A stretch of 63,116 bases of DNA, filler included, from Collodictyon triciliatum (lineage: Eukaryota), in the NCBI GenBank assembly GCA_043381765.1. It is 5 parts of 5 records of this genome, joined end to end, with 100 filler letters (N's around TTAATTAATTAA, not from the genome) between each part and the next. Parts side by side here need not be neighbours in the genome. Positions count along the whole stretch, not along the records: positions 1 to 19,912 come from JBHJMP010001271.1; positions 20,013 to 39,915 come from JBHJMP010001272.1; positions 40,016 to 52,664 come from JBHJMP010001274.1; 2 more parts are not named here. One strand, given 5' to 3'. Of the stretch, positions 66-46,718 are shown piece after piece; position 1 is the first letter of the stretch, and each line of letters opens with the position of its first letter. The translations under genes were made by a program, and so were the position numbers. Under the pieces are notes generated by a model. That model had not been told where the DNA came from. It saw nothing but the letters and a program-made list of their open reading frames with translations, and ran no database searches.

Positions 66-113
<48 letters not shown>

Positions 114-1394: not shown

Positions 1395-1453
1395 ATGTTA
1401 GAGGCGCGATTCTTTGAATCGAATAAAGGGGAAAAAATGTTAGAGGCGCGATT
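1395..1453 (+). mobile_element. Tiny poly(A)-tailed retroposed insert with 17-bp target-site duplication
   Basis: ATGTTAGAGGCGCGATT (1395-1411) + CTTTGAATCGAATAAAGGGGAAAAA + ATGTTAGAGGCGCGATT (1437-1453); perfect direct repeat. Confidence 0.75.
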
Positions 1454-1706
1454 ACTCAAAGAGCCATATATTTTGTTACTCCCGAAGGTTTCAAATACTT
1501 CCTCTCGGTTTGTATGTGCCCTCCTACTTACATATAATTTTATTAAGGGCAAATATATATAATAAAATCTGGATTGGTCACTCGTGAAGTGAAAAGAAAG
1601 TAATTAAGGATATATGAATAGTTGCAGTATTCATGAGATATATACCTAGGTATCCCCTTGTATTCAATGTATCTGACTCACAGTGGCAAATATATTTACT
1701 TATAAC

Positions 1707-4493
1707 CTAGCTGTTCCTATTTTCAAGAAGATCACTTGTTGGTGGTGAAGTCATAGCGTCATCGAGAGACTTCACAGGTTGGACCGTGTTATGAGATGAT
1801 AATACTTGGGACAAAGCAACAAACTGGGATAAATGGGCCTACATATTTATTTATTTTTTATAAAAATAAAAGTAACTCCAAAATTGAATCAATATATTTC
1901 ACGACTGATTAGAAAAGGCAAGAAAAAAATTGAAAGTATCAATTCAGAGAGCGGCCTTCAAAAGAAGTGGGACATAATCAAACAATAAAAGTGTACATTT
2001 GCCCCTTGAGCCAGCAAATTGACCTTTGATGATTCTGCCGATGGTGTTGGAATGTATGTTTTGGTACTCACTGAATGAAGGCTTTCTGATGAACGTGCTA
2101 TTTTATCAAATTTTTGCGTTATTAAAATGAAGTATTCTCAAATATTTGATGGATTGGATATTATAAGTATGGAAATAGATGGGATATGTCATTATGTACG
2201 ATAAGAATGACATACCAATACTATTTGCACTTCCTTGCTCGTAATAGTCTTTCGGCCCAAGAGTTAGATATCCTTGATTTCCGGAGCCTTGTAAAGGAGC
2301 GAACATTTGCTGCAGAATAGATATCATATAGTTTTGAGTCTCTTGATTTTGATCCCTAATTTTCTTTACTTCTGTATGAATTACACCGACGTTATTTTTC
2401 AGCTCCTGAACCTAGTTACATCAGTATTGAATATGTTAGAAATAAGTGAGGAGATTAGGGTACGCTGCATTTCTTTCCTTCTCTGCGTAGTTTATTTTGG
2501 TACTTTATAGGTAATAATTATTAAATAAATCAACGTCGCATACAAAGAAGACGTATTAAACAAAGGTCTATGTGGACTCTTAAGTTACCTCGAGTAAGAT
2601 GGCATTCAGTAGCTGAGTTTGCATTAATTCGCTACAGGTTGTTTGAGGATTATTATGGTCCACGGGTATATGATATTCAGATGATCGATTTGCAAAAGAG
2701 GGAAATCCTTGTTTTATGGCTTGGGTGTCAACCGGAGAGGATGCAATAGACATAGACATTTGGACAAAGTGCATCTTTTGGTGATTTGTTGGAGGGGATA
2801 CAGTCTCGTCCAGATAAGATGATTGATTAAATTCTCGGTAAGGATGGTCGTATGCTTGCAATGAGGAAGTCGGTATAGTATACTGATAAGTATCTCCGTT
2901 CTCCAACGGAGTCTAAATGTCGCCATGAAAAGATAATATATATACACTTGAGTAATAAAGCAATACATGCCCGATTAATAATAAAAAAAATTTTCCCTTA
3001 AAAAGTATTGTGATAGAGCAGACTTTTCGCCAGCCTTCTGTAATTTATTCAGAATATTCCTTCGCTTGGTAGCTTTTACTTTTTTTTTTTTTTTTTAAGG
3101 ATACGGTGGAATGAGTAATTAAGCTCACAACATATCCAGATTCATCAGGTTCATTCGGCGTTGTATCAGTGCCCTTGCTTTTGCGGCGGTCCGACTTCTT
3201 TCGTTGGATTTTCTAAGGGGATGTGTTATAGTAGATAAGCAAAAAGAAATGTAAGTTCTCTTAAAAAGAAGATGATTTTATTAATTGTTTGCTTATAAAC
3301 ATATTCAAAAGCATATAATCAGTTAAGTGGTATACGCGAATATTGTCGTGTCCATCCTTTCGAAATATTGGATGAAAAAATTCCGACCCTTCCGTAGAGT
3401 CGGTTACCTTTACATTTTATTGAAATAAGCGATCTCAAAAAGACACAAAGACACGTTATTTATTTATGCCGAAGTTGAGAAATCACCTTGTGAAATCCAT
3501 ACGCGTTCAATTGTCGAACGAATGAGATCATTTTATTATGCTGAAAATATGTCGATAAGACGGTAGATTCGAATTTCTTAACATCATGTATGACCAAAGA
3601 CGTCCCGCTTTTGCTCCATCTAACTATATCCTGTTACAAAAACAAACAAACGACAAAAAAAAAAATACAAAATATCAAAGGAGAAGTAAGGATTTTTCAT
3701 TTATGTTTATTAAAAATAATTAAATACTATGTGATTAATATAATTTATAAATGATTGACTAAGCGACTATTATGAATATAAGCATGTGAATAGAAATGAG
3801 ACAAGAACTACAATAAAATAGAAAAGAAAAGAAAAGAAAAGAAAAGAAAAGAAAAGAAAAGAAAAGAAAAGAAAAGAAAAGAAGAGAGAAGAGAAGAGAA
3901 GAGAAGAGAAGAGAAGAGAAGAGAAGAGAAGAGAAGAGAGGAGAAGAGAAGAGAAGAGAAGAGAAAAGAGAAGAAAAGAGAAGAGAAGAGAAGAGAAGAG
4001 AAGAGAAGAGAAGAGAAGAGAAGAGAAGAGAAGAGAAGAGAAGAAAAGAGAAGAAAAGAGAAGAAAAGAGAAGAAAAGAGAAGAAAAGAGAAGAAAAGAG
4101 AAGAAAAGAGAAGAAAAGAGAAGAGAAGAGAAGAGAAGAGAAGAGAAGAGAAGAGAAGAGAAGAGAAGAAAAGAGAAAAGAAGAAAAAAGAAGAAAAAAG
4201 AAGAAAAAAAGAAGAAAAAAAGAAGAAAAAAAGAAGAAAAAAAGAAGAAAAAAAAGAAGAAAAAAAGAAGAAAAAAAGAAGAAAAAAAGAAGAAAAAAAA
4301 GAAGAAGAAAAAAGAAGAAAAAGAAACGAAATGGCACATTGTTCAAATTAAATACCGAATTGCGGGGCTCGTTGACAATGTCCCACAGCTTCGTGATGAA
4401 GGCAGTTGGGTAAAGCACTTGGGGGGTAGGCAAAATGGCGTTTGCACCCTGACTCGACGCATGATCGTTGTTGGCACTCTGCTTTTCAGCCAT
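1707..4493 (-). CDS. Heat-shock-factor (HSF) family transcription factor, about 8 exons
   Basis: Spliced GT-AG exons give PTAFITKLWDIVNEPRNS|DIVRWSKSGTSLVIHDVKKFESTVLSTYFQHNKMISFVRQLNAYGFHK|VTDSTEGSEFFHPIFRKDG, the HSF DNA-binding domain with the SFVRQLN.YGF.K signature. A later heptad segment reads VQELKNNVGVIHTEVKKIRDQN. Stop TAG at 1707-1709. Confidence 0.9.
3817..4326. repeat. About 510-bp compound polypurine microsatellite (GAAAA/GAGAA/GAAGAAAAA)n in HSF intron 1
   Basis: Directly visible A/G-rich tract; it produces the spurious F/S/L-rich ORFs in the track. Confidence 0.95.
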
Positions 4494-5080
4494 GTATTGT
4501 CTGTCGAGTAAACTGTGGCGCCCTTCTGGTTTGTTAAACTTATATTCTTTGATTAGTCCTAGACAATTCGATCTTCAACTTTTTTTTTTTTTTTTACCTT
4601 TGTCCCATCAGTTCCGCCAGGCATGTTTTATTTCAATTTTATTCGGTTTCACTTTTGACTTTTGTGTTATAGATTTGCTTTATTGTTGATGTGTTTACGT
4701 CATGTCATGTGTGCTCAACTAACTTTCTTCGCTATCTCTTACGCGTGACAGGTTTTAAATGTCGCTATGACATGCCCCTTTTTTTTCTTCTTCACCGACA
4801 TAGTGGCAGCCATTTAAAAAGACTGCTTCTAATACATGGCTTTCTATTCTTTTCGTTAATAGCAAATACATTATCCCCACGCTCACGACATCAACCCAAT
4901 CTTGCAGGAAAAGGTAAATATTCACCGACAGCCTTCATAAAATATTTGAGATGGCCCAGCCTTGAGTTCTCTAGGTCTAATCAGAGGCCTGTAGCCCAGT
5001 TGTTATGACTCTGACCACTGCACAAAGGCTAAAAGACGCGCCAGAATGAGAGGGGATATGAATACAATAGCCAGTAGGTG

Positions 5081-5082
5081 AA

Positions 5083-5141
<59 letters not shown>

Positions 5142-5142
5142 A
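5081..5142. repeat. (AAAT)n microsatellite
   Basis: Directly visible. Confidence 0.95.
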
Positions 5143-5509
5143 CTCTAAAGTTCTCTCTTCCATCCTTTCTCAGGCGTCATATTGCCCCAGAATATAAGTT
5201 TTAACTTTATAACAAAGTCACTATGTAACGGTGGGTGGTATGCACTAAATCCATGGTTAGAGAAATTTGGTTTAGAGGTGAAAACAAGGGGAAGACGAGG
5301 AAGCATCAAACAAACCATACGGAAAAAAGAAAGAAAAAAGAGGTGTTAAAGCAACGTGTAATTTTGAGATCAAGAGTGCTTCGGTTTTTCTTATGAGTAA
5401 ACTAGCTATGATGCGATTTTCCCCTCCTCGTGACATCATAAGCTTAAAGTTTTGATCAAAGAAAGAAGACTATAACGTCCCGAGACAGCCAGGATTAGGA
5501 ATATTCTTA

Positions 5510-10161
<4,652 letters not shown>

Positions 10162-10817
10162 GAAGCTAAGACAAGTTTAACGTGCCTCTGAGTTTAATAA
10201 TCCCTTTCTTTTTTTTCTTTTTAGTTTGTCTTTTTTTTTCTTCCAACAGCTCTATTTACTCTTTCTCAACCAGGCAGTCACAGGGAGCTGGCAAACTGTC
10301 TGATTAAACTCACAAAGACACGAAGCAGGGACTCCAACCTGACCGCCTTTTGGTTGGTCAGCGATAAACCGATTCACGCTTTGACTTTTTCTTCCTCTCT
10401 CCGCTCCTTCTCACTCACTCACTCATTCACTCATTCACTCATTCGTTCACTCACTTCTCGATTGTTTTTCAGTCATTTTCAATGGTGTGGCATTGGCACA
10501 TATTCAAACACGTCGACGCCATGATGCTTCAAAATGGAAGAAGTCATGACGTGATTGGACTGTGCACGGCGGACGTTTCTTGATAAATGGTACTTCTTTG
10601 GTGGCTTTTTTTGGTTTTGGCTTGCAGCGATAAAAATGGTATGTTTACGATGACTAGAAGTCAACTAACCTCGCAGTTTATATCTTAAGTTTATGACATA
10701 TTATTGTGGGTATATTTCCATAGAATTAATCCATAAAACGAACAAAATGTTGAAACAATGGAAAGTTCGCAATTACAGTTCTTTATGTATAATATAATTT
10801 TCTGGGGAGGAACATAA

Positions 10818-10890
10818 GCTTCCTCGGAACAGTTGGCAAGGCGCTCCCCCAGTCAGCGAGAGATCAGCAGTTCGACTCCGCTAGGAGGTA
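10818..10890 (+). pseudogene. Degenerate tRNA-Thr(AGT), probable pseudogene
   Basis: Parses as GCTTCCT CG GAA CAGTTGGCAA GGC G CTCCC CCAGTCA GCGAG AGATC AGCAG TTCGACT CCGCT AGGAGGT A (73 nt), with an intact B-box followed by TTTTT. Defects: C at 8, C at 33, C at 37, broken D-stem, mismatches in anticodon and T stems. Confidence 0.75.
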
Positions 10891-11221
10891 ACTTTTTACA
10901 GTTTGTTGGGAAAACTTGCCCATGTCAACGCGCCCTTTCCACAGCAGTGGGGGAATGTTTTTTTATTCTAAAAATCTCAGCTGTTGAGCCTGCCTCAACA
11001 ATCAACGCAAAGAAATGTTGATTAAACAAAAGAAGGTTCTTGTTTGGATGAGACATGAACCACTGCAAAGAAAGACACTTCTTAACGCCACCACTTTTAT
11101 TTGTTGCACGACATTCTCTATTCCTTTATATGTATTGAATCCGGGGTTGTTGGAATAGGTAAGCAATCCGTTAAAGTCAAAAAGATTCGAAGTTGAAGGG
11201 CGACAGAAGGAGCGCTCTATG

Positions 11222-13932
11222 TTAGCTGTTCTGGTTTCCAGAGGGCTTCGGGACTCGGTTGGGGCGCGGGTCCTCTCTTTTTCCTCTGGCCTGTCGATTA
11301 TCCTCTCCAGTTGCGTGCTGGTTTCGAGGGCGATTTCCATCGTACCTATTCATCAGGATGAAAGATTATCGCGATGGCTCGATTGCAATTTTCTGAATGG
11401 TATCCTGAGGTACGTAGTATGCTCCCAGTCAAAATTAGTCTTTCTTCTTTTTCTTAAAAAGAAAAAAAACAATAACAGAAAAAAAGAAAAGAGAGAAACA
11501 GTAGTAATGAAGTATCGCTCATAAGACACCAAACACTTACGTATTTCCATGGCGTGCTCTGGAAGACGTTTCGTAGAAAGGTGACCGCGGCTTCTGGTAG
11601 TTAGAAGGGTGTTTCGGAACCGCGATATTAAATGTTACCACTTCCGAGTTTCCAGACGCGTTGGGTCTCCTTTGTTGTGTCGGAAGCACTGGCTCGACCT
11701 TTCCAGCATCAGGCACAATAGGAGCACTTAAAAAGTCTTCATTCGGGACTTCTGCCTCAATAAGCAGCTTGGTGAGAGTGTCCACTGGCTTGTTTGAAAT
11801 TGGTTCAGGGGTTTCATCCTTTGGCTCGGATTTCTTCTCTCGATTATCAGTTGGAACCCTTGTAGGGGATATCGGCTTGGTCTTGACTAATTCTTGAGTT
11901 GTTTCTCCCTCCGATGGTTCTGTAAGAAATCATGTGTTATGATGATTTTTTTCTTTTATTCGATTCAAGGGAAGGAAGGGGTTCTTGATTGTTTGATATC
12001 TATTTTGATTCAAATTTTCTCAGTATTTTATCTGCTTCTTTGAAAAATACAATACTCTGCTCTGGAACTGGGGCGGAAATCGGCTCATCGGTGGATGGTT
12101 CTTCTATTGGCACTTCTGTGAACGATATCCATCAAATTCGAATTATGTTTATGATCCGAGAACAACGCCGTAGCATTTGACTAGCAGTCGAGACAAATAT
12201 AGTAAAATATTCAAAATTTACCTTCCTTGATTCTGCCTACCTATTCCGTCGAAAGTGAAATAATAACGTTAGGTTCGTAATGATGCGGTGAGGAAAAAAA
12301 CATATAAGTATGCACAGAAAAATATTCAAAAATATTATTATACTCCATACACATTCAGTCGTCGAAGTGATATTCAGTGGGCTGGATAGAACAGGTAAGA
12401 CATCATTAACAGTGAAGGAGTGCGATTCTCTTCGCACGTACTCGAAAATTTCAAACAGTTGCTCCAATAAATCAGGGATGGATGAATCTAGTTTATACAA
12501 AAGTATATTAAACGAATCATTTGGCGAAATATATCACACATGGTGTATTAATAGTATTTTTTTTTCCTTTATTCGATGCAAAGTGCAGCGAGTGTGTATT
12601 AATGGAATAAAATGGGGATGTTTTGGATGTATTGTGGCAAAAGAAATATTACAATTAACTCCGTTGGTTAGAGCTTCATTCGAATTTGTCAGAAACTTGT
12701 GGATTTTATCTGTCCTATAGACCATAGGATTAAGTTCATTTTGCTTCTTTTCTTTCTAGATTTTGAGCTTGGTTGTAACTCTTCATATAGGATCGAAATG
12801 ACTAATATAGTAGGTTTTTAATATATATAAAAAGGGGGAAACGTAATATTACTCGTTGTCAGAAAAAGCTGCTCGGACCAGTTTAAAGATGTCAAGAGCT
12901 GATTCAAATTCAGCTATTGTTGCAAACTAAACGCAAATTAATCATCAGGGAACAAGTATTATCAAATGCATATAAATGCGAACTGAATATAAAGCGTAAA
13001 ATTGAGCTTTCTTGTACTGTCCACATTGAAATCTTTCATTTTCTTTTTTTAAAAAAAGATATAACAAGCCTTTGATGATTCTGCCTTAACGATTGCGTCT
13101 TGCAAGACTCTTGGGTCACAAGCACTTCTAGAGTTGAGAATCTCAGATAGACGAAAAACTTTAGAAATCAGAGATAGTTCTACCAGGCGGGCAGCCTAAT
13201 GAGCATGATCAGTTCCCGTTCAAATAACCATTTTGTCAGAGAAATTGGAATGACCCAGATAAAATGGAGGTGAACAAAAGAAAAGGCAATTGGGTACTCA
13301 AATCGGGCATGTCATATATCCTTTGCAATATTATCAAAATTGTGGCGTACTTCAAATCGGCTAGCGATGTCAATCTCCAGCTGGGCTCTCTCGTCCTGGG
13401 TCTTTTCCGCGCTTTCGATCCGTTTCTCTTTGAAGTGAATCTATTCCATTAGTTGACTCCATAGTTAATACTTAATTAAAAGGCTGGCTTTGTTTTCCTC
13501 GAAGGAGGCAAACAAGAGAAAAAAATATACATATATTTACACGCGTAAGAGGATACTAAAAAAAAAAAAAAATAATCTGATAATGACTGGAAGTGGAGAC
13601 TGTAATTGTGTCTTGTGATGAGAGGTGAGCGCAGAAACAACTATGGATGTTTTCGTGGCCACCTTTTGGCCGTCTTCCCTGGCCACAGCGCTCATCTGCT
13701 GAAGGGTCTCTTCATAGTCTTCCACGAGATAAAGCAGCCGCTGCTTGTTGCTGATGGCCTCCAATTGTTCAGGTAGCGGCTGGATCTTTTGGCCGGCAAT
13801 TTTTCTTTCAAGCTCTTCGATCTTGGTGAGTTTCTTTCGTGCTGCGCGATTCTTTTTGGCAACAACAACAAAGAAAGGGTGTTGATCGCGAAGCTGCTCA
13901 GGCTTTTGTCCCTTGCAATCTTTGTCAGCCAT
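11222..13932 (-). CDS. Caprin-1-like RNA-granule protein
   Basis: N-terminus VVAKKNRAARKKLTKIEELERKIAGQKIQPLPEQLEAISNK resembles the Caprin HR1 start. Middle KIHKFLTNSNEALTNGVN|YSSIPDLLEQLF resembles the Caprin dimerisation domain. P/E-rich linker and R/G/N-rich tail ending ..KPSGNQNS*. Confidence 0.6.
12543..12608 (-). mobile_element. Tiny poly(A)-tailed insert (same family) with degenerate 15-bp TSD, intronic
   Basis: Minus strand: ATTCCATTAATACAC + ACTCGCTGCACTTTGCATCGAATAAAGG(A)8 + ATACTATTAATACAC (13/15 identical). Confidence 0.6.
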
Positions 13933-14454
13933 ACTTCCTTGGACTATAGATGAGCACAATCATGGCATCGTGAGAAATGGTGCCATTCGAGGTTGGGTAG
14001 TTCATGCTCTACTGCGGATCAGATTGCCGTCGCTTCTTTTCTTTTTTGTTTGTTTTTTGTTTTATTGTTTTATTGTTTTATTGTTTATTGTAGCTCCAAA
14101 AAATCGAACATTCCGGCAATGTTTTCATGCTATATTTGTTTTCTTAATGTGGATAATACATAGTTTCCTGTCAATATACCCATATATTAAAGAAACTTTA
14201 AAATGAGCTTGTAATATTCACTGCATATAATGCTTTAATACAAAATGTGTTGCCTGATTTGTTCATTATTGCAGAACCAATCCATAAGGTTTTTTTAACG
14301 AATCCATAAGGTTGTGAGCAATTGTTGCTGATTAGTTACGTCTCCTTGAAAAAATGTAGGAAGAGGAAGGTTCAGCTTGTGTGGATATAACAACCAAGTT
14401 GTCTGACTTTTTATTCTAAGGGAAAAAAAAAGGACATGTTAATGGAACTATGAT

Positions 14455-16840
14455 TCAAATGAGAGCACAAAGCCGTGATTTGGGGTCTAGGGCATGTTCT
14501 AGGGCGACCATCTCGTTCTCTAGATTCTGTTTTTCAACTTTCATTCGCTCTATATCGTTTTCGCATGCCTTCAGATCATCCTGTAGTTTTTTCATCACGT
14601 GGTCATCGTATTCCGATGGAGTTCTGATACCGCCTGACACAACTCCCGCGCCATCGTCCTCCCCATCATCATCATCTTCATGGGCAACCACAATATACAA
14701 TTGAGATTTTCGTTCCAAACTTCCATTCAAGGATTAATTCTTCTTAAGCATAGAGGAAGTCATATAAATATCTGCATGCCAATAAGAAAAAAAAATCACC
14801 TTGATATAGTACATATGGATCCTCAACTGGGGTGACAGGTCGTTCAGAGCTCAACGACTGCAAAATTCCTTCTTCCAAATCATCTTGAATATCCAAATAA
14901 GATTCAGCTCCAACAGACATTTCGATGAAATCTTCGTGCCATATACTTGAATCCGATGCTCGTGCGATGCGGGTCTGCATATCTCCATATGCAATCAGCC
15001 GCTTACACTTTGAACAAAGGCGAAGTTTCTCCAAAAAAGAATCAATGTGTATTTCTCCACCGTGAAATGTAAATGCTATGACGAATCCACCCGGGGATAT
15101 GCCTTCAAAGCTTTCCACACCAGATGTACAGGAACGAACCCACCCCACTTTTCTCTGAGAGGCGAGCCACGTGTGAATTGCCTTTGCATTTCGACATTGT
15201 CTCTGCAACCTGAGCCCGATTGTTGTGATTCCATGAATCATCATGAATGATCTGAACGAATCCAACTGAAGCCCTGTGTTGTATAATGTTTCTTGGCGGC
15301 ACTGCACAGAGAATGACATGTTTAGACCGCCGTAGTTTCCAAACGATTTTGAGTAGTTTATCTGGATGAGCCCGTTTTGTGAGTTCATTACATCTTCAAA
15401 TTTCGAAGACGACCAATTGAATGACCCTGCGTCCACTATGACCCCAGCATCCACCGAACTATTTCCTGTAATAGAATGCGCATTTGTACATATTACCACA
15501 TCTGCTCCATGCTCAATTGGTCTGTACAAATATCCACATCCTGGTAAAAAAAATACTCTTTTAACATGGAAAATAGGTCATGTTGAAAACATTCGACTTT
15601 GTATAAGATTATGTATAGCATGTAAATAAAAAAGAAAAAAGAAAAGAAAAACGAGAAGTATTGAGTGTTATAGCGTGCATGTATTCATGGGTATCTGAAT
15701 TACTCAAAATTAACGATTTACATCCAGCTGTATTATCTACAATTAATGGGAGTGTATGTTGTTTGCAAAACTCAGAAAGCTTTTCTAAGGTAAAATCCCA
15801 GCTTCGATATCCAAAAGGGGTTTCTACAAATACAGCTCTGGTATCTTGATCGGCTGCACTTGAAAGCTCGGAGAAATCTGCGCTGCGACAGGCAATACCC
15901 TAGCGGCCCAGAGATATGTGGTCAGTGAGTCAAAGTATATGACGTACATAATGAATGTTTTGGCAGAAGTAGATAAACGATTTTTTGCGCCATTGTTGGC
16001 CGGATATTCAAATATGACGGACCCGAGGAATACACAGTTTTGAAAAAAAAAGTAAATGGGTTAATGTGAAGATTACATATCTATGTAATCCATCCATCCA
16101 TTCTTTTGTTTCTTTGCTCACATTTCCGCAGTAAATGATATTTTTCCCTTTTGCAACTATCGACAGGAAAGTCACGGAAAGTGCTGCACGGCCACTTGCA
16201 ACAGCAACAGCTGTGACTCCTTTCATATGGAAACGAACAAGTAATGGTATTGAAGGAAAAAAAATATAACATAACAGTTACAATTCGAATTAATCTTCAT
16301 AATTTTCGATAACGAAGTATAGTCAAACAAAAAAAAAGTCCTCTCTTTGAATCAAAATGACAGCCAATGTCCTGCGTCACTTCACTCTGAAAAATAAACT
16401 GCCATTTGATACATTATGATATGTTGATTGCAGACTCAATTGTAAAGTGTTTTTTTTAAAAAAAATAAAAATAATAGTAATCAAAACCTCCTTCTAGTGC
16501 TGCGTATCTCTCCTCGAGTGCAGCTGTAGTGTATGTTGAGGCTGCATGTGGCGGACATGTTGGGTCGATCAGCTCATACACCTCCTCTGCGTTCTCCCAT
16601 GACCAAAGCATAGGGCTTGCATTCAATACCAGTGGTGTAAACGAAGGGCCTGGAGTGATATATGTGTCGTATATGAGCAGAAATTGCGTTGCGAAGAGAG
16701 CAAATTGCCCTTGAACGCTTGAACCTTTTGCATCATTGACATAGCCCGATACTGAAAATCAAATATAAATCTTTCAATAAAGGTAACTAACCCTCAGACT
16801 CATCGAAGCCTGCATGCAGCGAAAGTGTCTCAAAACGCAT
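14455..16840 (-). CDS. O-acetylhomoserine sulfhydrylase (MET17/MetY)-like Cys/Met PLP-fold protein with acidic/coiled-coil C-terminal extension; probably catalytically dead. 3' end uncertain.
   Basis: MRFETLSLHAG; ALEERYAALEG|GVTAVAVASGRAA; TRAVFVETP; PLIVDNT; RPIEHGADVV; GVIVDAGSFNW; IEMSVGAESYLDIQDDLEEG. All are MET17/MetY landmarks. Confidence 0.8.
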
Positions 16841-19798: not shown

Positions 19799-19912
19799 AA
19801 ACAAAACAAAACAAAACAAAACAGAACAAAACAAAACAAAACAAAACAAAACAAAACAAAACAAAACAAAACAAAACAAAACAAAACAAAACAAAACAAA
19901 ACAAAACAAAAC
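19799..19912. repeat. (CAAAA)n microsatellite at contig end
   Basis: Directly visible. Confidence 0.95.
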
Positions 19913-20012
19913 NNNNNNNNNNNNNNNNNNNNNNNNNNNNNNNNNNNNNNNNNNNNTTAATTAATTAANNNNNNNNNNNNNNNNNNNNNNNNNNNNNNNN
20001 NNNNNNNNNNNN
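19913..20012. other. Artificial contig linker N44-TTAATTAATTAA-N44
   Basis: Identical 100-bp spacer, with stops in all six frames, occurs four times in the window. Confidence 0.97.
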
Positions 20013-28495: not shown

Positions 28496-29986
28496 AGTAA
28501 ATAGCTTCTTTTTATCTCCCTTTTTACATTCTCTTCAAATCTACCAAAAATAAATACCCTTGCATCATTTTTACATTTCCCCCTCTCTATCTCTGGAAAA
28601 CGCACCTTGCGACGAAATACGGGGAAAATAGAAAATATACCTTACTGCTCTTATTCTTTTGCGGATCTATTTACGACATTTGCAAAGTGTGCAGTGCGTT
28701 TTGTGGCTTCATATTTCTGATTCAATCCCTTTTATTATATTCCCTTGTCGATGATTTATCAAAAGGTACTGGATCCATCAGACCTTGTGATTGACATCGA
28801 AATAACTGATATGGGCGATTCCAGCGCCGTTTGTGCTTCGGCGTTGCTTGAAGTGGGTGTGCAGCCTATTGTAGATGTATAGAAGATAACACGAACTATG
28901 ATGGCTGGCTGCCAGTAAATTGAAACCTGAATCCAGTTCTTCTGCACCGTGTCGATGAAAAAAAAATCTTCTCTCCTTTTTTTGTTCTATAATCCTCCCT
29001 GGTCATAAACTTAGGGCCGACGCGTACCACGTTTTGTTGTTCGTTTTGGCTGCGTCGCACGTGGATGTGATGCCTCGAGATACAAGCCTTCCTTCTGCTC
29101 TTCCCTCGAAATAATCTTGGTCAAATTTGGGCAAAGATTGGCAGAAACGAACCACAATTATGGAAAACCCAAAACATTTCATGAATTTGTCCTTTTTTGA
29201 ATTTCCAGGAAAACACAAGTAAATCAATTGATAGTACCTTATCTTTTAAAATAGACTACTTCTTTGAATTATTCGAGACAGACAAAACCACTTAGCGCCC
29301 ACTCTCGGTCTAATTCCTTGGAATTTCCAAGAACTACGTCATCATTCGTCACGGATCTATTTCCAAAAAGGTAGATTTTTCCTGTCCACGAAGCCTGCAA
29401 TCAATGCGCAATCACGCCGAAATGTACATGCCTTGTGATGAGGCTGTTTCCTGTGTGCGAATTGGTTCAAGAGCGGCGCCCTTATGATGCGCACTGATAG
29501 CCAACCAACGTGAGAAAAAGTCATTATTGAGCAGCTTCAGCATGGACACACACTGAGCGGAACCGAGCATGAGAACGAGAAGCTTCGTGGGAGCAGAGAG
29601 ACGAACCAAGCGCCTCTTGTGAGCAGCATGTCTTTGCGTCTGAGAGGAAGCGCTTTTCGCGGCGCGGCAAGTTGGGTCGAATCGGTGGCTCTTTGCTCTG
29701 TTCAATTCGGACTCTTTTTTTTTTTTTTTAATTTAATTTTTATTTTTCATCATTTTTCTTCTTGATTCATCTCGGTCGTGTTCCGTTTTCTGAAGCCCGA
29801 AAAGACTCTTCGAGAAGTGTCCTCCACCCTATGTTGCTGTGTTGTTTGTTTTCCTGCACTGTATGAGTACGGTGGGGAAACCGTGGCTCATGAGAGGATC
29901 GAGAGACTGCTTGTCCTTGCACCAGACGCAACTCACAGCCCAGATGAACGAGTCGTATTGCTAACCCCGACAAACTCCACTCACAG

Positions 29987-34375
<4,389 letters not shown>

Positions 34376-34602
34376 ACGGCGCCTCCTGCGTCCCCGTCTT
34401 TGTGACTATCTTCATGCTGGAACTAAGCCCTCAGAGAAACGAGTCGCCGAGAAAACTAAACCTCTGGCTCGCTCTGTGCAACCCTCGTCTAGATTATGTG
34501 ACGCCTCTGATTCGCTAATAGCCTGCGAACAATTTCTCATTTTTTTTTTTTTTTTGTTAGTTGTGATGTTCGCGTCAGTGACACTTTATATGCCTCTGCA
34601 CC

Positions 34603-37600
34603 TCACGCTGGGCTGAGGGCTACATCCCTGATGGTCGGGGATGCGTTGCTGAGGGTCACGGTGACTGTGGCCGGCTGATAGCCTGTGTGATTGCAGTGAT
34701 GGAATGTGATGAGTGGACTTGCCGGCGACTCCCAAAGAGCATAGTGTGTTGGGGTCGAAGGAGGGCGGTTAAGGAGCGACCTGCAGCGGAGAACGTGAAC
34801 GTGTATGTGCCATTGGGTAGGAACTCATAGAAGCGCCCAAAGACGGCGTCTGTGTAGCGGGTTTCTCCACTTTGCCAGGCAACCTCACGGACTGCAGAAG
34901 GTTTCATGGTTAGCGATGGGGTTTGTGGTTTGTGATGTGTGATGGCGGGTTTGGTTGAGTGGCACCGTCGATCTTTGCGCGGATGGGTCGTCCAGTGCGT
35001 GAGTCGGTCACGCGGCCCGAAAGTGGGATGGTCTTGTCGAACACTGCCTGAACAAGGGGCCACAGTCGGTTGGCTTCGGCAATCGCACGGGAGTAGCTGA
35101 GTGATGTGATGTGATGTGATGTGATGTGATGTGATGTGATGTGATGTAATGTATTTTTTTTTTTTGGTGACCCAACAAGGAAAAGAGAAAGCACCTGGGT
35201 TGGAACTCTGTCTCAGTCTCGACGAGGAATGCGTAGTTACTCAGCTCTTTGATAGCAAATTGCTGATGCTCGCCATCAGCGCTGATGCAATAGTTGTGAG
35301 AGTGAGTTCGCGCAGCAGTGTATCAATCATGTTTACAAACTCGTGAAATTTGAAAGGTGGGTGATAAAATTAGTTGTTTGTTTTTCTTCTAAAAAAACTA
35401 TTGTGTATAAAAGATATGCAATGGAGCACGCCTGTGGGCTCGGTTCTTGTTTACGCAGTTGTATAGAATGCGGGTGTATATGATATTTGAGAGGAATCAA
35501 ACGCACCTGGGGACGCGGTTGGCATAGTTGACTATTTTCGCCAGGTTTGTTCCCTCAGAGATGACATAGTTGTTGATGATGGAGGGAATCGGGGTGCATC
35601 TGAAAATGCGAGGAAATGACTTTTTCATATGTTCCTTTTCACATTTCTTTGAATCGAATAAAGGAAAAAAAAAATGTTCCTTTACACATTTGGAGGATAC
35701 TGTCGGGTATTCTCATTGACACAATTAGAAAAGGAGAGGGGAAAGAAAAATTGTCCCTCATAAAGTCGACTTATATGTTGTATGCGGCGGAGAGGTAAAT
35801 ATATCTCGTGATCATAAAAGTAAAATAATAAAGTATTCTCCCAATTACGTGTATGACAGAAGAACTTCGCGTCCGTACGAGTGGAAATCAATGACTTTGG
35901 CAAAATGACGCTTTCGGCTGAACAAAATCAGGTTCTGCAGTGTGTATTACAAGGAGTAAAAAAAGTAACTACATAAGCCAATACTTTGTCGTTGATACTA
36001 TTAAAAAAAAAAAAGAAAAAGAGTACACTTTCAGTTTGTTCCCTACTTTTTTTTCTATGCAATAGGTTCTACATTCATATTGATTATAAGACTATGATTC
36101 ATGTGAACCCAGCGCCATTCTGCATAGCTGAGTATATGTTCAATTTTCTTCATTTCACTGAATCATATCATACTTGAGTCTCCTCTTCAGAGTTTGCGGA
36201 TGGTCCGCGGTATGTCTCGCTTGATGGTCTATATAACGAAGTAATTAATTGATATTAACTCGACTTCTTCCTTTTTTTGCACAGCCAACTTATGCCAAAG
36301 AGGAGCTATATAAATAGTTTATGAATACATGGTCTTAATGACTATATATTATTGAAAGAAAAATAATGTTTTCTACATTGAACTTCCTCCACAGGAGCTA
36401 GCCCATCCCAGGTCATAGTTTCGGTTTTGGTCGACCTATGAGACATTTCATCTGAGTTGGAAGCTAGGAAATAAAATAAAGAAATTATTCAACAAATGGA
36501 ACTTCTATTATGTATATCGTCGTACACCAAAGGCAGTTGATGAGACAGGTTTGCGATTCTTTCTCCACCTAGCAAAATAAATTACTAAAAGAAAAAGAAG
36601 ATCAAACATCTATAAAGAAAAAGAATAATGCACATCATTTTTTACACACTTTATTTACGTACATGTTATTGACTCTCCAGACGTACTCATACCCATCTAT
36701 GTATTATTTGGGGTTTAATTTTAAGTTTAGCAGTTATATAATGAACAAAGTCTTTCAAGAGGATTTCAGATACACAGGCGTGAGCTTGCCTGGATTCCAG
36801 ATCGGAGCAAGAAAGATCTCATTATTGTCCACATAGGACCGTATTTTGTTATCCCTGTTATTTGCATGTTAGCCTAACAGCAGAGTTTTTCTTCAATGTG
36901 GTTACATGAATACAAATAGCAAATATGACTTTTTACCATGAACGACTGATGTTGTAATTTCACTTTGTCAAAAAAAAAAAGACGAAAAATATTGTAAAAA
37001 TATATGATGAAAATATTCGTGTCCTTCGTTTAGTATTGTATGTTTATTACGTGGCATATCCTTCGGTCAAGCGGCGGATGATGTCCAAAATAATTTCTGG
37101 TGTAATAATTTCACTGTAGCGGGTGTGTGTCAGACAATTATTGCAAGAGCAAACATGAAAAGAACTGGCGAGTATGTTATGCTGTCAAGAAGTAGATGAT
37201 TACCGTGCATGGTGAAGTGCTACGAAGAAAACCTGGTAAGAAGGACACATGGAACAAATAATATCATTAGTGAACATGGTTGTGAATCAAAGGAGATGTC
37301 ATTAACCTCTGCTTCTTACAATATTATTCTAATCTTTCCAGTGGACTTAATTCAATAGTTACATTAGGCTCATCCTCATCGACTTGGACGTTGTCTGATA
37401 TCTTTAACGCGTACATCGGCCGCCCCTTAATATTTTTTTTAAAAAAAAGAAGAAAAGTGAGTGAAACCTCGACATACGAATTTTTCTTTTAAAGTATGTG
37501 GGAAAATACTATATGTTTATTTTGTATTTAGGGACATCAAATGTATAGCTGCAGTAGCTGTAAATTTAGTATTGATATTATGTAATCATTTTCCCCCTTC

Positions 37601-38601
37601 ACTCGATGTTACATAATCAATTTAAATAAACATAAGAGCACACACACAAACTATGGTGCCAATGAAGGAACGCAAAATATACCTCAATGTGCATGTATGA
37701 TATGATTCTGTCATAGGCATATGCTCACCTCATAAGTGTTGCCGATACCGTATTCCTTTCCAACATCAACTAGCTTAGCTATAGAAGGATATTTGTTCTG
37801 AGTCTCCAACAACAGTGCGTTGATTGTGGCAAGGTCGCGATACCCAGAGGGAAGAGCCTCTCTATCATGGACCAAGCAGCGTCAAGGTAATTGTTTTGTG
37901 CAAGGCGCGGGTTAGTGAAGCAAAAAGCAATTTAAAATGCAATACGCTTTTTTTTATTTTTACGCTTAGAAACATCTAGTTTATATATAAAGAGTTGTTT
38001 GCTTGAGAGAAAAAGGGCAACTTTTTATTTATCTTATTGATATCATGGGATATTATGCGTGACTAAATAGCATAATTATGTCATATACTCGGCCAGTTTT
38101 TCAGCCAAGGGTCTCGCCTTCTCAACGATGTTGTAGTGAATTCGATTCACGTTCAGGAGTTGAAGATCAGTGGGACTGGCGAAGAGCTGCATTGGTTCAT
38201 GGTGTAAGGGGAACACATTAGTCAAGTCTGCTTATCTTGCAACGATTATGTTAATGAGGCACTAAAGAGCCTTGTCGTTGGAATAAACTAGCAATAGAGT
38301 GAAAGCTTGCCTCAATGATCTGCAACTCTGTGAGATAAACCGAGTCCAGCCCGAGAGAGTCCACACGATCCTTCAGAGCCGGGCCGCTTTGTTGATTGAC
38401 GTTGATCTGAGTGGCAATTGCACAAAAGTCAGAGGATCTGAGGTATGCGGCGAACCTTTAGGCGCTTTTGTCTTTCCAAAGTGCTTATCTTATGTTTAAA
38501 ACAACCTGCAAGCGAAAGAGCGGCTCATCGAGCCCAAAAGCCCAGGCAGAAGAGACAAGGACAAGGAAAATCAGCGCACTTACGGCAACCCTTCGAGGCA
38601 T
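34603..38601 (-). CDS. Secreted zinc carboxypeptidase, M14 family, carboxypeptidase T-like, with C-terminal CarboxypepD_reg-like domain; about 17 introns
   Basis: Signal peptide MPRRVAVSALIFLVLVSSAWA. Motifs YE|GRPMYALKISDNVQVDEDEP, LHHAR|E, WNP|DGY, WRKNR, G|VDQNRNY, SETYRGPSANSEEE, IDFHSYG, AFLVET. Tail LSGRVTDSRTGRPI..GTYTFTFSAAG|Y. Confidence 0.88.
35101..35147. repeat. (GATGT)n microsatellite directly upstream of an acceptor in the carboxypeptidase gene
   Basis: Directly visible. Confidence 0.9.
35629..35691 (+). mobile_element. Tiny poly(A)-tailed insert (same family) with 18-bp TSD, intronic
   Basis: ATGTTCCTTTTCACATTT + CTTTGAATCGAATAAAGG(A)9 + ATGTTCCTTTACACATTT (17/18 identical). 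Confidence 0.75.
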
Positions 38602-39091
38602 TCTATTACCAATGTCGGTATGTAACTCTTGCGAGATGGATAGGTGGATGGATAGAATAAAGAGCCTTCGAACTCATGACGGAACTCGTGTGCAAAGGCG
38701 AGGGTATGTTTGTGCGATCGAGTGATGGGAAGTGATTTGATTCTTTCATTCGCTCAATTGATTTTGCATTTGCTGTCAATTCTCTTTCTTTCTCATGTAT
38801 TTTGTATTTTGGTAAACAACACGTTTTCCATATCTCGGCTGTGGTGGGTGTCTCAGAGTCCATCCTTGGAATGTCTCAACAGGTGATGAATGATGGGCAT
38901 TGATTTATTTCGTCAAGGTATTAGCGGTATTGGGACGGAAGGTGCGCATCGAACAAGACGACGAAGATATGGCAGGGGGAATCAAATGTTTGAAGTGAGG
39001 CGAAATGCTAGGAGGGTGTGACATAATTGCTTGAGATACGGACACTGGAGGAGATATGTGAGTTTGCTAAGAAATAATAATAAGGAATAGC

Positions 39092-39759
39092 TCAGCTTAA
39101 GTCGGGAGAACCGAATAGGAGAAAATGTTGGCTCATTCGACGAGCAGGCAGCCGAACGGCTTCGTTGTGTGTGTCTGGTTCTTTGTCTTCACTTTTTGTG
39201 ATGTCCCCGCTAGACTCTATGTCTCGGCCAGCAATGCCTAGACCGATAGCTTTAGGAATATCTTCGTCGTCATCACTTCCATAGCTGTCTTCATCTTCGT
39301 CGTCAGCCAACACGATTTCCCGGACCATGCGCAAGAGTTGTCCGTCACGCAATCGCCTTCGTGGCGTGCTCTATTACGACCGAAGGTTAGAGTTGCCAAA
39401 GTACTTTGTGAGTGACATCGGTATGGCATATTACTTATCCATATTGGCTACTTGCAACAGAAATGAAGGCAAAGGTAAAAGCAAAAGCAAAAGCAAAACA
39501 AAGTTACAGGTGATGATGACTCCAAGACTTTTGGAGAGACGTTGGCGGACAGGAATGAAGTCAAAACTGGCGAATTGCGCAGCAGGCTTGGAAGGCGCAT
39601 CCTAGGAATCCCAAAAGCAGGGTTGATAGTTTCCGGACCGAATCGGTTATTGGTGGCGCTGGCGGAAGCTGCGTCGATTGATCGAATCGCCCCCAGCAGA
39701 CTCCGTGGCGGAGACCGAGCAGTGAGCACGGGTGTGGGTATTTCGCTTGGGGTCGACAT
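39092..39759 (-). CDS. Uncharacterised S/P-rich and acidic low-complexity protein (at least 2 exons; 5' end may lie beyond the contig)
   Basis: ORF MSTPSEIPTP..ESSSP|gtaact ...atag|STPRRRLRDGQLLRMVREIVLADDEDEDS..., phase consistent; no recognisable domain. Confidence 0.45.
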
Positions 39760-39817
39760 CTTCTGTGCACTGATGGAGATGCGCACATCAAGTGGGGTTA
39801 CCACGGTATCTTAGTCG

Positions 39818-39915
39818 TGTTTGTTTGTTTGTTTGTTTGTTTGTTTGTTTGTTTGTTTGTTTGTTTGTTTGTTTGTTTGTTTGTTTGTTTGTTTGTTTGT
39901 TTGTTTGTTTGTTTG
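39818..39915. repeat. (GTTT)n microsatellite at contig end
   Basis: Directly visible. Confidence 0.95.
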
Positions 39916-40015
39916 NNNNNNNNNNNNNNNNNNNNNNNNNNNNNNNNNNNNNNNNNNNNTTAATTAATTAANNNNNNNNNNNNNNNNNNNNNNNNNNNNN
40001 NNNNNNNNNNNNNNN
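39916..40015. other. Artificial contig linker
   Basis: N44-TTAATTAATTAA-N44. Confidence 0.97.
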
Positions 40016-40065
40016 GTTTTTGTTTTTGTTTTTGTTTTTGTTTTTGTTTTTGTTTTTGTTTTTGT

Positions 40066-40102
<37 letters not shown>

Positions 40103-40184
40103 GTTTGGATTACTCGTGCATTAGTATGTAGTTTTGATGTTACCTATCTCAAGAGAATGTATCGGTTCGCGTCCTGTCGCTCTA

Positions 40185-41709
40185 ATGAATGCTAATTCGT
40201 TCAAACATTACCTTGAAGCTTTGCTCAACAATGATGAGCTTCCTCAGGGACACTCGGGCGATGATAAATGTCGTGCTGTTAGCGCAGTTATCTACAAGAT
40301 GATTCGAGAAGGGTGCGTCATATTCTCTGTTTTAGAACTAAATTTCATCAATTAACAAACTAATAATCCAAGGTATCAATATCTATGCATTTTCATATAT
40401 CTGAATCAAATCATTTTTTTTTATTTTAATGATCAACAAAACAGAGCGCGAAATCCGAACCCGATTTTCATCGAGGACTTGAATGATAGCAAATACAATT
40501 ATTATTCATCAGGGCCATCGTGTTGTTTTTGTTTTGGAGGAGGCGAACAGTATTCACTGATATCATCATCATCTATTATCCTACTTAACATATATATTTT
40601 AAACTTCTATATATTTCCATGACAAAGACACTCCGAAACATCATGTAGATTCATTCTTTGCATTCGAACATGAAAATCCACCAGAAGTCTTTTAATAACT
40701 CCATAACGACCTTCTGATTACAATTGTATTTTAATCCCAAACAGGCGATACGACATGCCCGAAGTCAAACACATATATGTTTACATTAGAAAAATCATGC
40801 GCACCACAGGTTCGGTGAAACTGGTCAAGCATTTATACAGTTATTCACCACGGCAACCACTAATCCAATTTCCTTTGATGAGCTAGGGATGGGTCTTGAT
40901 GTCACCATCATCGGTCTAGTGCTGATTGATCGGTAATCCATACAAAAAAATATATTGTTTCTCCCAGATTGTCATACAGAAGATACGCATCAATATGATT
41001 TGTGTTTTTTTTTTTTTTTTTTTTGTTTTTTTTGTTTTTTTGTTTTAAAAAAGCTAACATTCATTTCTGTGCAGTTTGGTGAAGAAAACTGGACTTACAT
41101 TGTCGCCTAACAATTGGAAACCGACAGTTTTTGCATGCATGCTACTTGCAAGCAAGGCGTGGGGAGATGACGAAGTGCGCTTTTGCAACGCAGACTTGAC
41201 TTATTTGACCGGCGTTACTGATTACTCTCTCCCGGATGTGAACAGAATTGAGAGAAAAGTTTTAGAGCTTTTGCAGTATGATATCAACGTTTCATCAAAT
41301 ATGTAAGTATGCTTGGCTTGATTGCCCAGTGACGCAAGGATGCGATGTCTTTGCTTCCATCTAAAAGTGCTTACAAGCCCTCTCCCGTCCACTTCTTTCC
41401 TTTTTCCTTTTTCCTTTTTCCTTTTTCCTTTCTTTTTTTCCCCCTTTTTCCCCCCTTTTCCCTCTATCTATTCTTTTCATTTTCTCTTACATGCCACAGT
41501 ATCTACTTTAAATTATCGTCATGAACATGCAGTCGCTGTTTTGTATTAATTTTGTGTCTTGCTTGCCCATTGTTTACAGATATGCCAATTACTACTTTGG
41601 TCTTCTTGCGCACTCAAAGCCCAAAGAATCAAACAACTTCCGTACAAAGTTCTATGCTCGCCCCGGTGTTGCAAAGAATATCGCCGCACGACCAAAGCAG
41701 CAGGTTTAG
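40185..41709 (+). CDS. Cyclin Y-like protein (start uncertain, possibly 5'-truncated)
   Basis: IIGLVLIDR|LVKKTGLTLSPNNWKPTVFACMLLASKAWGDD..DVNRIERKVLELLQYDINVSSN|IYANYYFGL matches the cyclin Y box pattern (NW..LLASKVWDD; YAKYYF). Confidence 0.85.
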
Positions 41710-42409
41710 ACCTTTGTGAACAGTTCTCGACGAGATTCGAATCCAGACTCTTTTGACATCGCCCGAATCACGCACCCTTTTTGCTATATGCGCCCCCAGA
41801 TTCTGAAAATAGTCTTCTTTAGCAACCAGAGAAAACGGAGAGCACAACGCCGAAACTCGCAACTACGCTTTAAGTACAGAAGTGCAGCAGAGGCAAAAGA
41901 AACTACAAACACAACGGGTATCACAAAAGAGTCATGGGATGCAGATTGCAAATAAGGGGAATGTCAAAACGGAGAGAGAGACAATATGAATGACTTCAAA
42001 TCGATGGGATTATATTTCTCTTTTTAATTCTGCCTTTTCTTTGCCTTTCCTTTTTGCTCCTCGATTTTTTAATTTTTGAAGTCGAAGCCACCAAAAAGTC
42101 GTTATATTACTTTTAACCCCCTCGTTATCATTGCCATTCGATTTAATTATTCATAAACACTCGATATTTTTTAAATTATGGATTACAAGAAGAAAAAAAA
42201 AAAGAGAAATAGAGAAAGAGATTATCGGCGGATGTACGGGTCGTGTGGTATTGCAATCTTAGTTTACACTTTATTTCATTATCGAGTAAATCATCGTTAG
42301 TAAAGCTCTAGAAGTGCAACAGCGGTTTACTGTGGTTGTTGCTGAGCTATTGGATATACTCTCGCTGCAACGCATCTAGGACACAGATTGAACACTGAAT
42401 GAACGGACC

Positions 42410-45400
42410 TTATTGATGGCTGCCCTTCGCGCGGATGCGGGAGGCTTTTGAGTTTGATGTTTTTGAAATGAGTGCCCTGTGAGAGATAAAATAAATAAGC
42501 ATGCTTGCTTCAAATATCAGAGTTTGCAGATACGGTCATGCGCACTGCGGGTATCACTCGCATACACAGCTCGATTTACATGAACCCATCGTACTTTTCA
42601 ATCCTGACAACCACGGCATCGTCCGCACCGTCCTCCTCGCCAACATAAACTCCTCCATCGAATCCTAAGACGTGTGTGGCGTTGGAAGATGTTGGCCGAG
42701 AAATGGTCTGTAGTGGTGTTTTTGCTCTGCTCGACGGGCGTCTGGTTATGATGTGCTGTGAGTCGGGTGAATCGAAGCATAGAAGCAGCATGTGATATTT
42801 TTCCCTTCAGTTTGCCTGTGGTCGTTTTTTGCATCAAGATGAATAGTGCAGATAATAAGCGATGAGTGGCTACGTTCTCGAGAGGGCGCTTTGTGAGCTG
42901 TTGATGCCAGGAAGCAAGGAAGATTCACGCTCAAACGGCGTAAGGAACTGGTCAAGCTCTGTGCTGAGAGCCACGGAAGCCCTGCAAGCGATGCGAAGGT
43001 ATATCAATTACCGTCATCGTGTGGCACAGAGGATTGAAAAATGCCAAATCGTTGAAGGTCGTCCATTCATTACCCACATTTCGTTCAACCGAATAAAGGA
43101 AACAAAAATAGTTACATAGCTTTTTTTTTTTCTTGTTATCAGTATGGCAGAAATAAAGGAGCGATAAAAAGAAAGAAGTCGATGAGCAAATACGTAATGC
43201 AAGTCTAAGGCGGGGTCGTAATGGTGCATAAGAAAACTGGGCAAGCATTGTACTTTTCATAAGTCATGATATCCTCCTCGCATGGGGAATTCTTTCTTGT
43301 GATGTTTGCTGGTGTGTGGAAAATGGGGCTGCTAGTGTTGTGCGAGGGTGTAGTAGACCTAGAATTCAACGTCTGAAGCAAAATAATAATAATTCTTTTA
43401 TGCTAAATACGATAGAATCCAGTTTGGATAGAAGCTTCAAAATATACAAAAAGAATCTAATTGGTTTCAATCAGCCGTAGTTATTGCATTGATATATACA
43501 TATACCGCTGTAATGTTTCTGATTGTGTCGTCGATTCGCTTAGAGTAAATTTCAAAGTCTTTCTTGTCAAGCTTTTCCTCGCTTATTCTCTTTCCAGCAA
43601 TCTGTGGGTAGACTTTTTCAATTTCGCTGGTGTTTGAGTGTGCAAATCAATGATGTTTGTAATTAACACTCTCATTTTTTTCTTTAAAATAGCAACAGTA
43701 ATGAATAAGTAGAGGGTGAAAACCTTATCTTGCTTCATCTGTAGTAGCAGCTGGATCTTTTCCATTTCCTTTTCAATAAGTTTGGACTCTTCGGTCTTTA
43801 ATTGGAACATCTCTATTATCTCTCTTTGGTCATATAGAATCTTGATGAATCGGTCGAACTCAGCTTGGTCAACCTTAAAATATTTATCTGAATTTATATA
43901 TGAAAAGAATGGTAATTTATGACAGTCTTATGGGAAAAACCTTTGAAACAAATGTGCAAGATAAATCCTCCAGTCTTTCAACGATAGAATGAAGCAGTTG
44001 GTATTGTGGGGAACTTGACGCTGGACTCGAAGCAACCTTGGTTTTGATTTGTTCAATTTAAAAAAAAATACAATATATCGATCTATGTCGACATTAAATC
44101 ATAAAGACATATAAATGCACAGAAATTATCGAATAAAGGGAAAAAAATATAAATGCACAGAAACGTAAGCATAGGCACAAACTTCAAAATAATCTATGAA
44201 CCATAAATAATGAAGTTTCCCAAAAACAAACCGGAAGCAAAGGATTAGAGTGTTTCAAGTGTAATTTTCCAGGGGCGATTCGCGCCTGCAGGTTATATAT
44301 CTCGCCGTATGGAATTCCATTCAACCGATCGAATGTGTACGCATCCGGCGTGGCTCCATCCATTATTCCCCTAGTTTCCAGTTGATGCACTCTGACTATA
44401 AAAAGCGTGTGAAGAGCCTCATTTAATTAAGGATAACGCCTTTTCTTCTTCGTGACGACTTTATCATTTTGCAACACTGGTTGTAGTTATTTTTAATCTA
44501 GATCAACACCCATAAGCTCAGAGAATTGCAGATGGTGCGCATCAAACTCTGATTTATCAAGCTTCGTCCCGATGTCATGCAAAGTGGTGGCCCTATCTTG
44601 CTGTGTGTTTCAAATGAGAGTCATTAGAACAAGATAGCTTGTAAATTTCATTTCTATTTCCTGAATCGTTCGAAGCAGACCATGTAGTGGGTGCAAGTCA
44701 CGTAATCACCAAGCGTGATGGACAGTTTTGCGTATATTTGGTCGTGGATTGTGGATTCTAACTTTGTAATTCTGGTCCAGAGGGTGTCTTTTGCATCCTT
44801 TCCCAGAGATAATAGCATGTGTTTCAATATAAGGAGAGAGAGAGAGAAAATAGTGGTAATATAAGATAAAGGTTGCATGATTTAAAATTGCGAGAACAAA
44901 ACATTTCTTTTTCGAATGAATATGGTACTCATGAAAGATAAGTTTATTACGATAGAAAAGTTTTGTGTCTGGTTTAGCTTCGCCCTTATGTCTGTTAGTT
45001 CGCCAAGAATGGCTTTTTTTGAATCCAACGATTGGTCAACCAGCTGCCTCAACTCATCGGATAGTTTTTGCGTCTGTAAGTATATTAAAGAAAGCGGGAA
45101 AATCCTGTTTCAGTGTCTACCAAGTATGTCAACAATAGTGATATATATATATATATTAAAATCAGTTTATAGATACCATCGATGATAAGAAAAGATTGGA
45201 TAATGCACGAATCTAACAGGCCGATCGACCTTTGTGCAATAAAGAATGACAAAGTGGATATGACAGATAACCAACCGATGTTGCAAATGACGCCAGTGAC
45301 TCCGATTTTGATTGCAAAGCCTGCGTCAATTCCTTGATTTTCTGGTCGTGACTTTCCACCTGCATGAAAAATGTGGAGGCATCCTGCAGCCGAGTAATGT

Positions 45401-46673: not shown

Positions 46674-46718
<45 letters not shown>

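Follow-up and report, generated by a model that had tools for sequence, protein, structure and literature searches.

In a 63,116-base stretch of the Collodictyon triciliatum genome (assembly GCA_043381765.1; the whole stretch is called the window below), very short poly(A)-tailed inserts recur between long direct repeats, which raises the question of what these inserts are and how they arose. The window consists of five contigs (1-19912, 20013-39915, 40016-52664, 52765-59838 and 59939-63116), and the inserts lie on the first three of them, in line with the three contigs named in the original prediction. Our analysis indicates that they are very probably copies, strongly shortened at the 5' end, of a poly(A)-tailed, L1-like retrotransposon of the non-long-terminal-repeat type, that is, a long interspersed nuclear element (LINE). 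We favor this reading because all four exact copies carry both a poly(A) tail and a 15-18 bp target-site duplication, compared with 0/74 chance matches, and because the inserts are identical to the terminus of a LINE on the metagenome contig L003 while their 5' ends vary.

The core of the inserts, ATCGAATAAAGG, has four exact and two one-mismatch matches in the window, compared with a mean of 0.50 in 100 shuffled sequences, 0/100 of which reach six; the predicted motif family is thus real. The matches are as follows.

1418-1429, plus strand: exact match to ATCGAATAAAGG
12566-12577, minus strand: exact match to ATCGAATAAAGG
35653-35664, plus strand: exact match to ATCGAATAAAGG
44128-44139, plus strand: exact match to ATCGAATAAAGG
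11953-11964, minus strand: one-mismatch match to ATCGAATAAAGG
43088-43099, plus strand: one-mismatch match to ATCGAATAAAGG

The six copies built around these matches, with their flanking duplications, are arranged in this way.

1395-1411, plus strand: copy 1, upstream target-site duplication (ATGTTAGAGGCGCGATT), 17/17 identical to 1437-1453
1412-1436, plus strand: copy 1, insert of 25 nt, with 18 nt of LINE 3' end (CTTTGAATCGAATAAAGG), GG and an A-run, 18/18 to the L003 end
1437-1453, plus strand: copy 1, downstream target-site duplication
35629-35646, plus strand: copy 2, upstream target-site duplication of 18 nt, 17/18 identical to 35674-35691
35647-35673, plus strand: copy 2, insert of 27 nt, with 18 nt of LINE 3' end and A9-10, 28/28 to L003 with the tail
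35674-35691, plus strand: copy 2, downstream target-site duplication
44109-44125, plus strand: copy 3, upstream target-site duplication (ATATAAATGCACAGAAA), 17/17 identical to 44147-44163
44126-44146, plus strand: copy 3, insert of 21 nt, with TT, 12 nt of LINE 3' end, G and an A-run, 19/20 to L003
44147-44163, plus strand: copy 3, downstream target-site duplication
12594-12608, minus strand: copy 4, upstream target-site duplication (ATTCCATTAATACAC, minus strand), 13/15 identical to 12543-12557
12558-12593, minus strand: copy 4, insert of 36 nt, with ~27 nt of LINE 3' end (CTCGCTGCACTTTGCATCGAATAAAGG) and A8-9, 34/36 to L003
12543-12557, minus strand: copy 4, downstream target-site duplication
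11946-11969, minus strand: copy 5, old or degenerate, with ~17 nt of LINE 3' end, AAAAG in place of AAAGG, and A7, 22/23 to L003
43088-43108, plus strand: copy 6, old or degenerate, with ~13 nt of LINE 3' end (ACCGAATAAAGG) and an interrupted A-run, 18/19 to L003

In each of the four exact copies, a poly(A) run of A5-A10 abuts the downstream flank. The repeats flanking copies 1-4 were found both by reading the sequence and by script, each pair being specific to its site, and the identities given in the original prediction (17/17, 17/18, 17/17 and 13/15) were confirmed. Its statement that all repeats start with AT likewise holds for the four upstream copies, which read TTT/ATG, CAT/ATG, GAC/ATA and TTT/ATT, the slash marking the start of the repeat. 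The AT start hints at a nick-site preference that would leave a T-ended primer able to pair with the tail; four sites do not suffice to define a consensus. Between AATAAAGG and the tail, copy 3 has an additional G and copy 1 an additional GG, which may stem from differing source copies or cleavage positions. Additionally, the series of repeat identities, which runs from 17/17, 17/18, 17/17 and 13/15 to none in copies 5 and 6, suggests insertions of differing ages.

The duplications were compared with controls by a repeat score, defined as length minus 3 per mismatch and applied in the same way to copies and controls. Copies 1-4 score 17, 15, 17 and 9. Copies 5 and 6 score only 4 and 5 and therefore have no target-site duplication, just as the weaker copies had been described. 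Outside the window, we examined 74 chance matches to ATCGAATAAAGGRRAAAAA (68 loci in prokaryotic genome contigs and 6 in viral contigs), none of which has LINE sequence upstream or a duplication and which were therefore used as controls; 0/74 reach a score of 9, the maximum being 8. Inside the window, 4/484 other A-runs score at least 9, and all four lie within purine-rich tandem repeats at ~26.4 kb and ~30.4 kb. Another 221 A-runs, whose best repeat is of low complexity, were set aside. In the whole window, only eight exact direct repeats are ≥11 nt long and separated by 8-80 nt, and the two longest, both of 17 nt, are found at the motif. Within 3 kb, a search for further poly(A) retroposons flanked by duplications turned up only copies 1-3 and, at 14279-14313, a trivial repeat of 13 nt. 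The latter is an exact direct repeat (AATCCATAAGGTT) around a 9-nt A-rich spacer, reading CGTTAAAAA on the minus strand, and is either a 22-nt tandem duplication or a still shorter poly(A)-type scar, the two being indistinguishable here.

The 3' end of a probable parent element, for which the original prediction had proposed a search, was located together with relatives that carry endonuclease and reverse transcriptase domains. Metagenome contigs of the Joint Genome Institute were scanned for TTGAATCGAATAAAGGNNAAAA and gave six loci, of which L003 alone runs on into sequence of LINE type; the remaining five appear to be chance matches, two of them (L001 and L006) being alike in the sequence around the match. 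On its minus strand, L003 (1157 nt) contains the element's 3' terminus, CCTCGCTACACTTTGAATCGAATAAAGG(A)10, beyond which the DNA is AT-rich and unrelated. Before this terminus, the strand carries a 202-aa open reading frame (ORF) that is open at its 5' end and then, after a frame change, a 133-aa frame, and the poly(A) tail begins ~93 nt past the stop codon that closes the last long frame at L003 place 205. The 202-aa ORF matches Pfam zf-RVT with 32.4 bits (cut-off 27.5). This domain is the zinc-binding region at the C-terminus of LINE reverse transcriptases.

A word-indexed search of the L003 ORF among longer proteins gave no match, and a HMMER pass over 1.84 billion representative proteins gave only 14. 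The close matches among these (59-98% identity) are short metagenome fragments, while the full-length relatives P0009-P0012 are proteins of 1226-1275 aa with 25-38% identity to the ORF over the matched stretches. Specifically, P0009, P0011 and P0012 contain Exo_endo_phos, RVT_1 and zf-RVT, and P0010 contains Exo_endo_phos and RVT_1. The best match of the full-length relatives is human LINE-1 ORF2p; for P0009 the E value is 3.4e-57 over the endonuclease and reverse transcriptase, compared with 1e-23 for R2 proteins. The L003 ORF aligns with the C-terminus of P0009 (residues 975-1123) at 28% identity, with a pair E value of 3e-17 and the pattern C-x2-C...H-x4-C in register. Judged by these predicted protein features, L003 is the 3' end of an L1-like LINE, because its ORF belongs to zf-RVT and aligns with the C-terminus of a protein that carries both endonuclease and reverse transcriptase. 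The LINE family is new and, with 14 matches in 1.84 billion proteins, poorly represented in public data.

The inserts are linked to this terminus directly. When L003 is compared with the window by blastn, only its last 18-36 nt match, exactly at the six sites, and each match runs into the tail; the terminal 27-28 nt plus poly(A) are common to the L003 end and the window inserts. By alignment, the 5' ends lie ~27 nt before the tail in copy 4, 18 nt in copies 1 and 2, ~17 nt in copy 5, ~13 nt in copy 6 and 12 nt in copy 3, which leaves the LINE sequence at that point after two extra T. The coincidence of one shared 5' end has a chance probability of ~0.2-0.3 among four copies and of 0.2-0.5 among four to six. 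At L003 place 132, within CTCGCT(G/A)CAC, copy 4 carries a variant G in place of the A of L003.

The family is also abundant in X1 and X2, two public sequencing runs kept as contigs, whose kind is guessed to be RNA and may be DNA. They contain 9% and 8%, respectively, of the sampled words of window positions 1-10000, and no RNA run is listed as containing such words. At 80% likeness, 306 contigs of X1 and 344 of X2 match L003, of which 129 and 128 are at least 99% alike, and the G variant at place 132 is present in 21 and 23 contigs. Depth in the first bin beside the tail is 4915 in X1 and 3440 in X2, and its mean beyond 500 nt is 165 and 305, so that L003 depth drops 30-fold and 11-fold away from the 3' end; contig depth in these runs does not register matches below ~31 nt. 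The unique flank of L003 (places 1-78) has a depth of 0 in both runs. The flanks beyond the tail differ among the X1 and X2 contigs (agreement 0.55-0.59), and there are at least 140 further loose ends. This is how a 5'-truncated LINE family with many copies and a 3' bias looks; should the runs be RNA, transcripts could account for some of the gradient. The same contigs have an additional G behind L003 place 593, within places 549-606, where the reading frame shifts between the 202-aa and 133-aa frames, and L003 itself may be a frameshifted copy.

The inserts, their tails and duplications, their identity to the LINE 3' end and their varied 5' ends are all seen directly, and from established knowledge of L1-type elements we infer the enzymology and the cause of the early stop. 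The ORF2 endonuclease would nick the bottom strand right before the top-strand AT, and the freed 3' end would serve as the primer for reverse transcription, which would start at the poly(A) tail of the LINE transcript. Copying would halt after just 12-27 nt of the 3' untranslated region, a stretch that includes the AATAAA signal of the element itself. The short cDNA would then be joined at a top-strand nick 15-18 bp downstream, and gap filling would yield the target-site duplication.

Two quite different origins were weighed against truncated LINE copies. Besides LINE 3' remnants, the original prediction had offered a micro-retroposon of about 20 nt, that is, a dedicated non-autonomous element resembling a short interspersed nuclear element (SINE), with a fixed 5' end and a hairpin, moved in trans by a LINE; copies 1 and 2 do start at the same base, CTTTG. 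Such an element is nevertheless very unlikely, because the 5' ends vary (~12, 13, 17, 18, 18 and 27 nt before the tail), no hairpin is predicted, a promoter does not fit in 21-36 nt, and no tRNA-like or Rfam-like head was found in the tRNA and Rfam scans of the window, which gave 0 matches each. Additionally, copy 4 extends upstream into LINE sequence just as L003 does. The fixed 5' end that had been placed at the foot of a CTTT...AAAG hairpin is not borne out, as the ends are spread over 12-27 nt and the predicted folding energy of the inserts of 25 and 27 nt is 0 kcal/mol, with 200/200 shuffles at least as good; unusual structure is likewise absent from the terminal 59 or 159 nt of the LINE (z of -0.24 and -0.51). 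The part of the earlier interpretation that stands is the one naming LINE 3' remnants, which agrees with the L003 terminus, the zf-RVT ORF and the 3'-biased depth in X1 and X2. Alternatively, the inserts might not be mobile at all, and might reflect chance recurrence of the motif or local tandem duplication including the A-run; the unrelated 13-nt repeat with its 9-nt A-rich spacer at 14279-14313 demonstrates that small duplications do occur. We give this origin almost no credence, as six motif matches stand against 0.5 expected, the same 12-27 nt lie between four unrelated repeat pairs on three contigs, and a metagenome contig obtained independently has a LINE terminus with the identical sequence.

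Some observations weigh against the reading of the inserts as truncated copies of an L1-like LINE. The contig L003 carries only the C-terminal domain, and the reverse transcriptase domain is assigned from relatives at ~30% identity; moreover, the parent element is known from L003 and from runs X1 and X2 and is only presumed for the genome of the window itself, and these runs may be mixed samples whose kind, RNA or DNA, is only guessed. The lengths are a further point. All six window copies are ≤36 nt, none is longer in 62.3 kb of non-N sequence, and LINE sequence is found at 0/10 contig ends. If X1 and X2 depth is taken as copy lengths, the decay length is 150-230 nt, which predicts 14-21% of copies to be this short, and the probability of 6/6 at ≤36 nt is then about 1e-5 to 1e-4. 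Plain random truncation does not obviously predict six ultra-short copies out of six. This improbable outcome, for which a wider range of 1e-5 to 2e-3 is also given under the decay length from depth, the absence of LINE sequence at contig ends and the same start base in two of the four copies with duplications would all speak for a distinct ultra-short class, derived from LINE RNA and favored as a product separate from the smooth truncation series, which could be made by run-off reverse transcription on LINE RNA pre-cut ~12-27 nt from the tail or, alternatively, by a built-in early release by the reverse transcriptase. However, the fragmented assembly, with simple repeats at 9/10 ends and a 455-N gap, may miss longer near-identical copies, and selection in gene-bearing DNA would likewise leave tiny copies only. 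The depth in X1 and X2, for its part, may be that of RNA and is blind to copies below ~31 nt, a shared 5' end has a chance probability of 0.2-0.3, and the remaining 5' ends differ. We consider a class of this kind unlikely, and it is equally doubtful that the LINE family yields mainly ultra-short copies, of 12-27 nt plus tail, whether through pre-cleaved RNA or through a reverse transcriptase releasing within 30 nt. If this were true, the family would place a ready-made AATAAA-plus-poly(A) cassette about every 10 kb in gene-bearing DNA, leaving scars that escape repeat finders and could create new transcript ends. A real excess of ultra-short copies would be a sign that processivity is very low or that pre-cleaved RNA is copied, and would offer a natural case for studying insertion completion.

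Read as truncated LINE copies, the inserts resemble 5'-truncated LINE-1 in the poly(A) tail, the AATAAA near the end, the variable 15-18 bp duplications and the variable 5' truncation, and the relatives of the parent, with an apurinic/apyrimidinic endonuclease, a reverse transcriptase and a Cys/His C-terminal domain, match human L1 ORF2p best. The nick consensus of human L1 is TT/AAAA; in contrast, the first nick in the window would lie before a top-strand AT at 4/4 sites. The ORF2 C-terminus of this family is only 25-38% identical, over the matched stretches, to its four full-length relatives in the library of 1.84 billion proteins. The window copies hold only 12-27 nt of element sequence, whereas human L1 solo insertions have a median of 390 bp (somatic) or 1277 bp (germline) according to one study (PMC13009371). 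The inserts share with SINEs and other short poly(A) retroposons the small size, the poly(A) tail, the flanking duplications and the LINE 3' terminal sequence, but, at 21-36 nt, have no fixed 5' end, promoter-bearing head or part related to tRNA, 7SL or 5S. A blunt full-text word search, judged by titles and the starts of abstracts, found no LINE family described as known mainly from copies of <40 nt.

The surroundings of the inserts are those of gene-bearing eukaryotic DNA in a fragmented assembly. The genes in the window are eukaryotic and include a Sel1-repeat ORF, a TKL-type kinase, XPB helicase, Ras, a succinate dehydrogenase flavoprotein and a Cys/Met pyridoxal phosphate (PLP) enzyme. 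No reverse transcriptase or endonuclease domain was found in 145 scanned ORFs, out of 178 of at least 85 aa in the window, the 33 left outside the domain scan being mostly overlapping or low-complexity frames; among the ten scanned ORFs that adjoin inserts, no family reached its cut-off. At 20606-24802, on the minus strand, an intronless 813-aa Sel1-repeat ORF stands directly 3' of a 380-aa kinase ORF of Tyr/Ser-Thr type on the same strand, and the two may be a single kinase-Sel1 gene or a tandem pair; in a protein atlas the 813-aa ORF matches generic Sel1 clusters only. An imperfect (AGAAAAGAAA)n array of 512 bp at 3820-4331 gives rise to long spurious ORFs on both strands, for example at 3759-4493. 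The contig at 52765-59838 contains the 455-N gap at 58407-58861, and ORFs that span this gap or the spacers between contigs are artefacts. Simple-sequence repeats occupy 9/10 contig ends, A- or T-rich in eight, and include poly-T, (AAAAC)n, (TTTG)n, (GTTTTT)n, (AAAAGC)n and (TGTA)n. These ends are as expected for a fragmented short-read assembly that breaks at simple repeats, in which the genome is rich. The spacers and repeat-type ends are located as follows.

19913-20012, 39916-40015, 52665-52764 and 59839-59938: artificial spacers, N44-TTAATTAATTAA-N44
1-110, 19799-19912, 20013-20100, 39836-39915, 40016-40095, 52585-52664, 52765-52844, 59939-60018 and 63037-63116: contig ends of repeat type

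Together, the window inserts are very probably scars of target-primed reverse transcription by an L1-like LINE and, as such, ordinary biology. Their density is about one per 10 kb (6 in 62.3 kb of non-N sequence), with an AATAAA signal in each, and the high genome-wide copy number suggested earlier is plausible. Insertions of 21-36 bp fall below the detection of repeat annotation, and in genomes like this one, unrecognized LINE scars may account for a real share of the small indels and of newly arisen polyadenylation signals.

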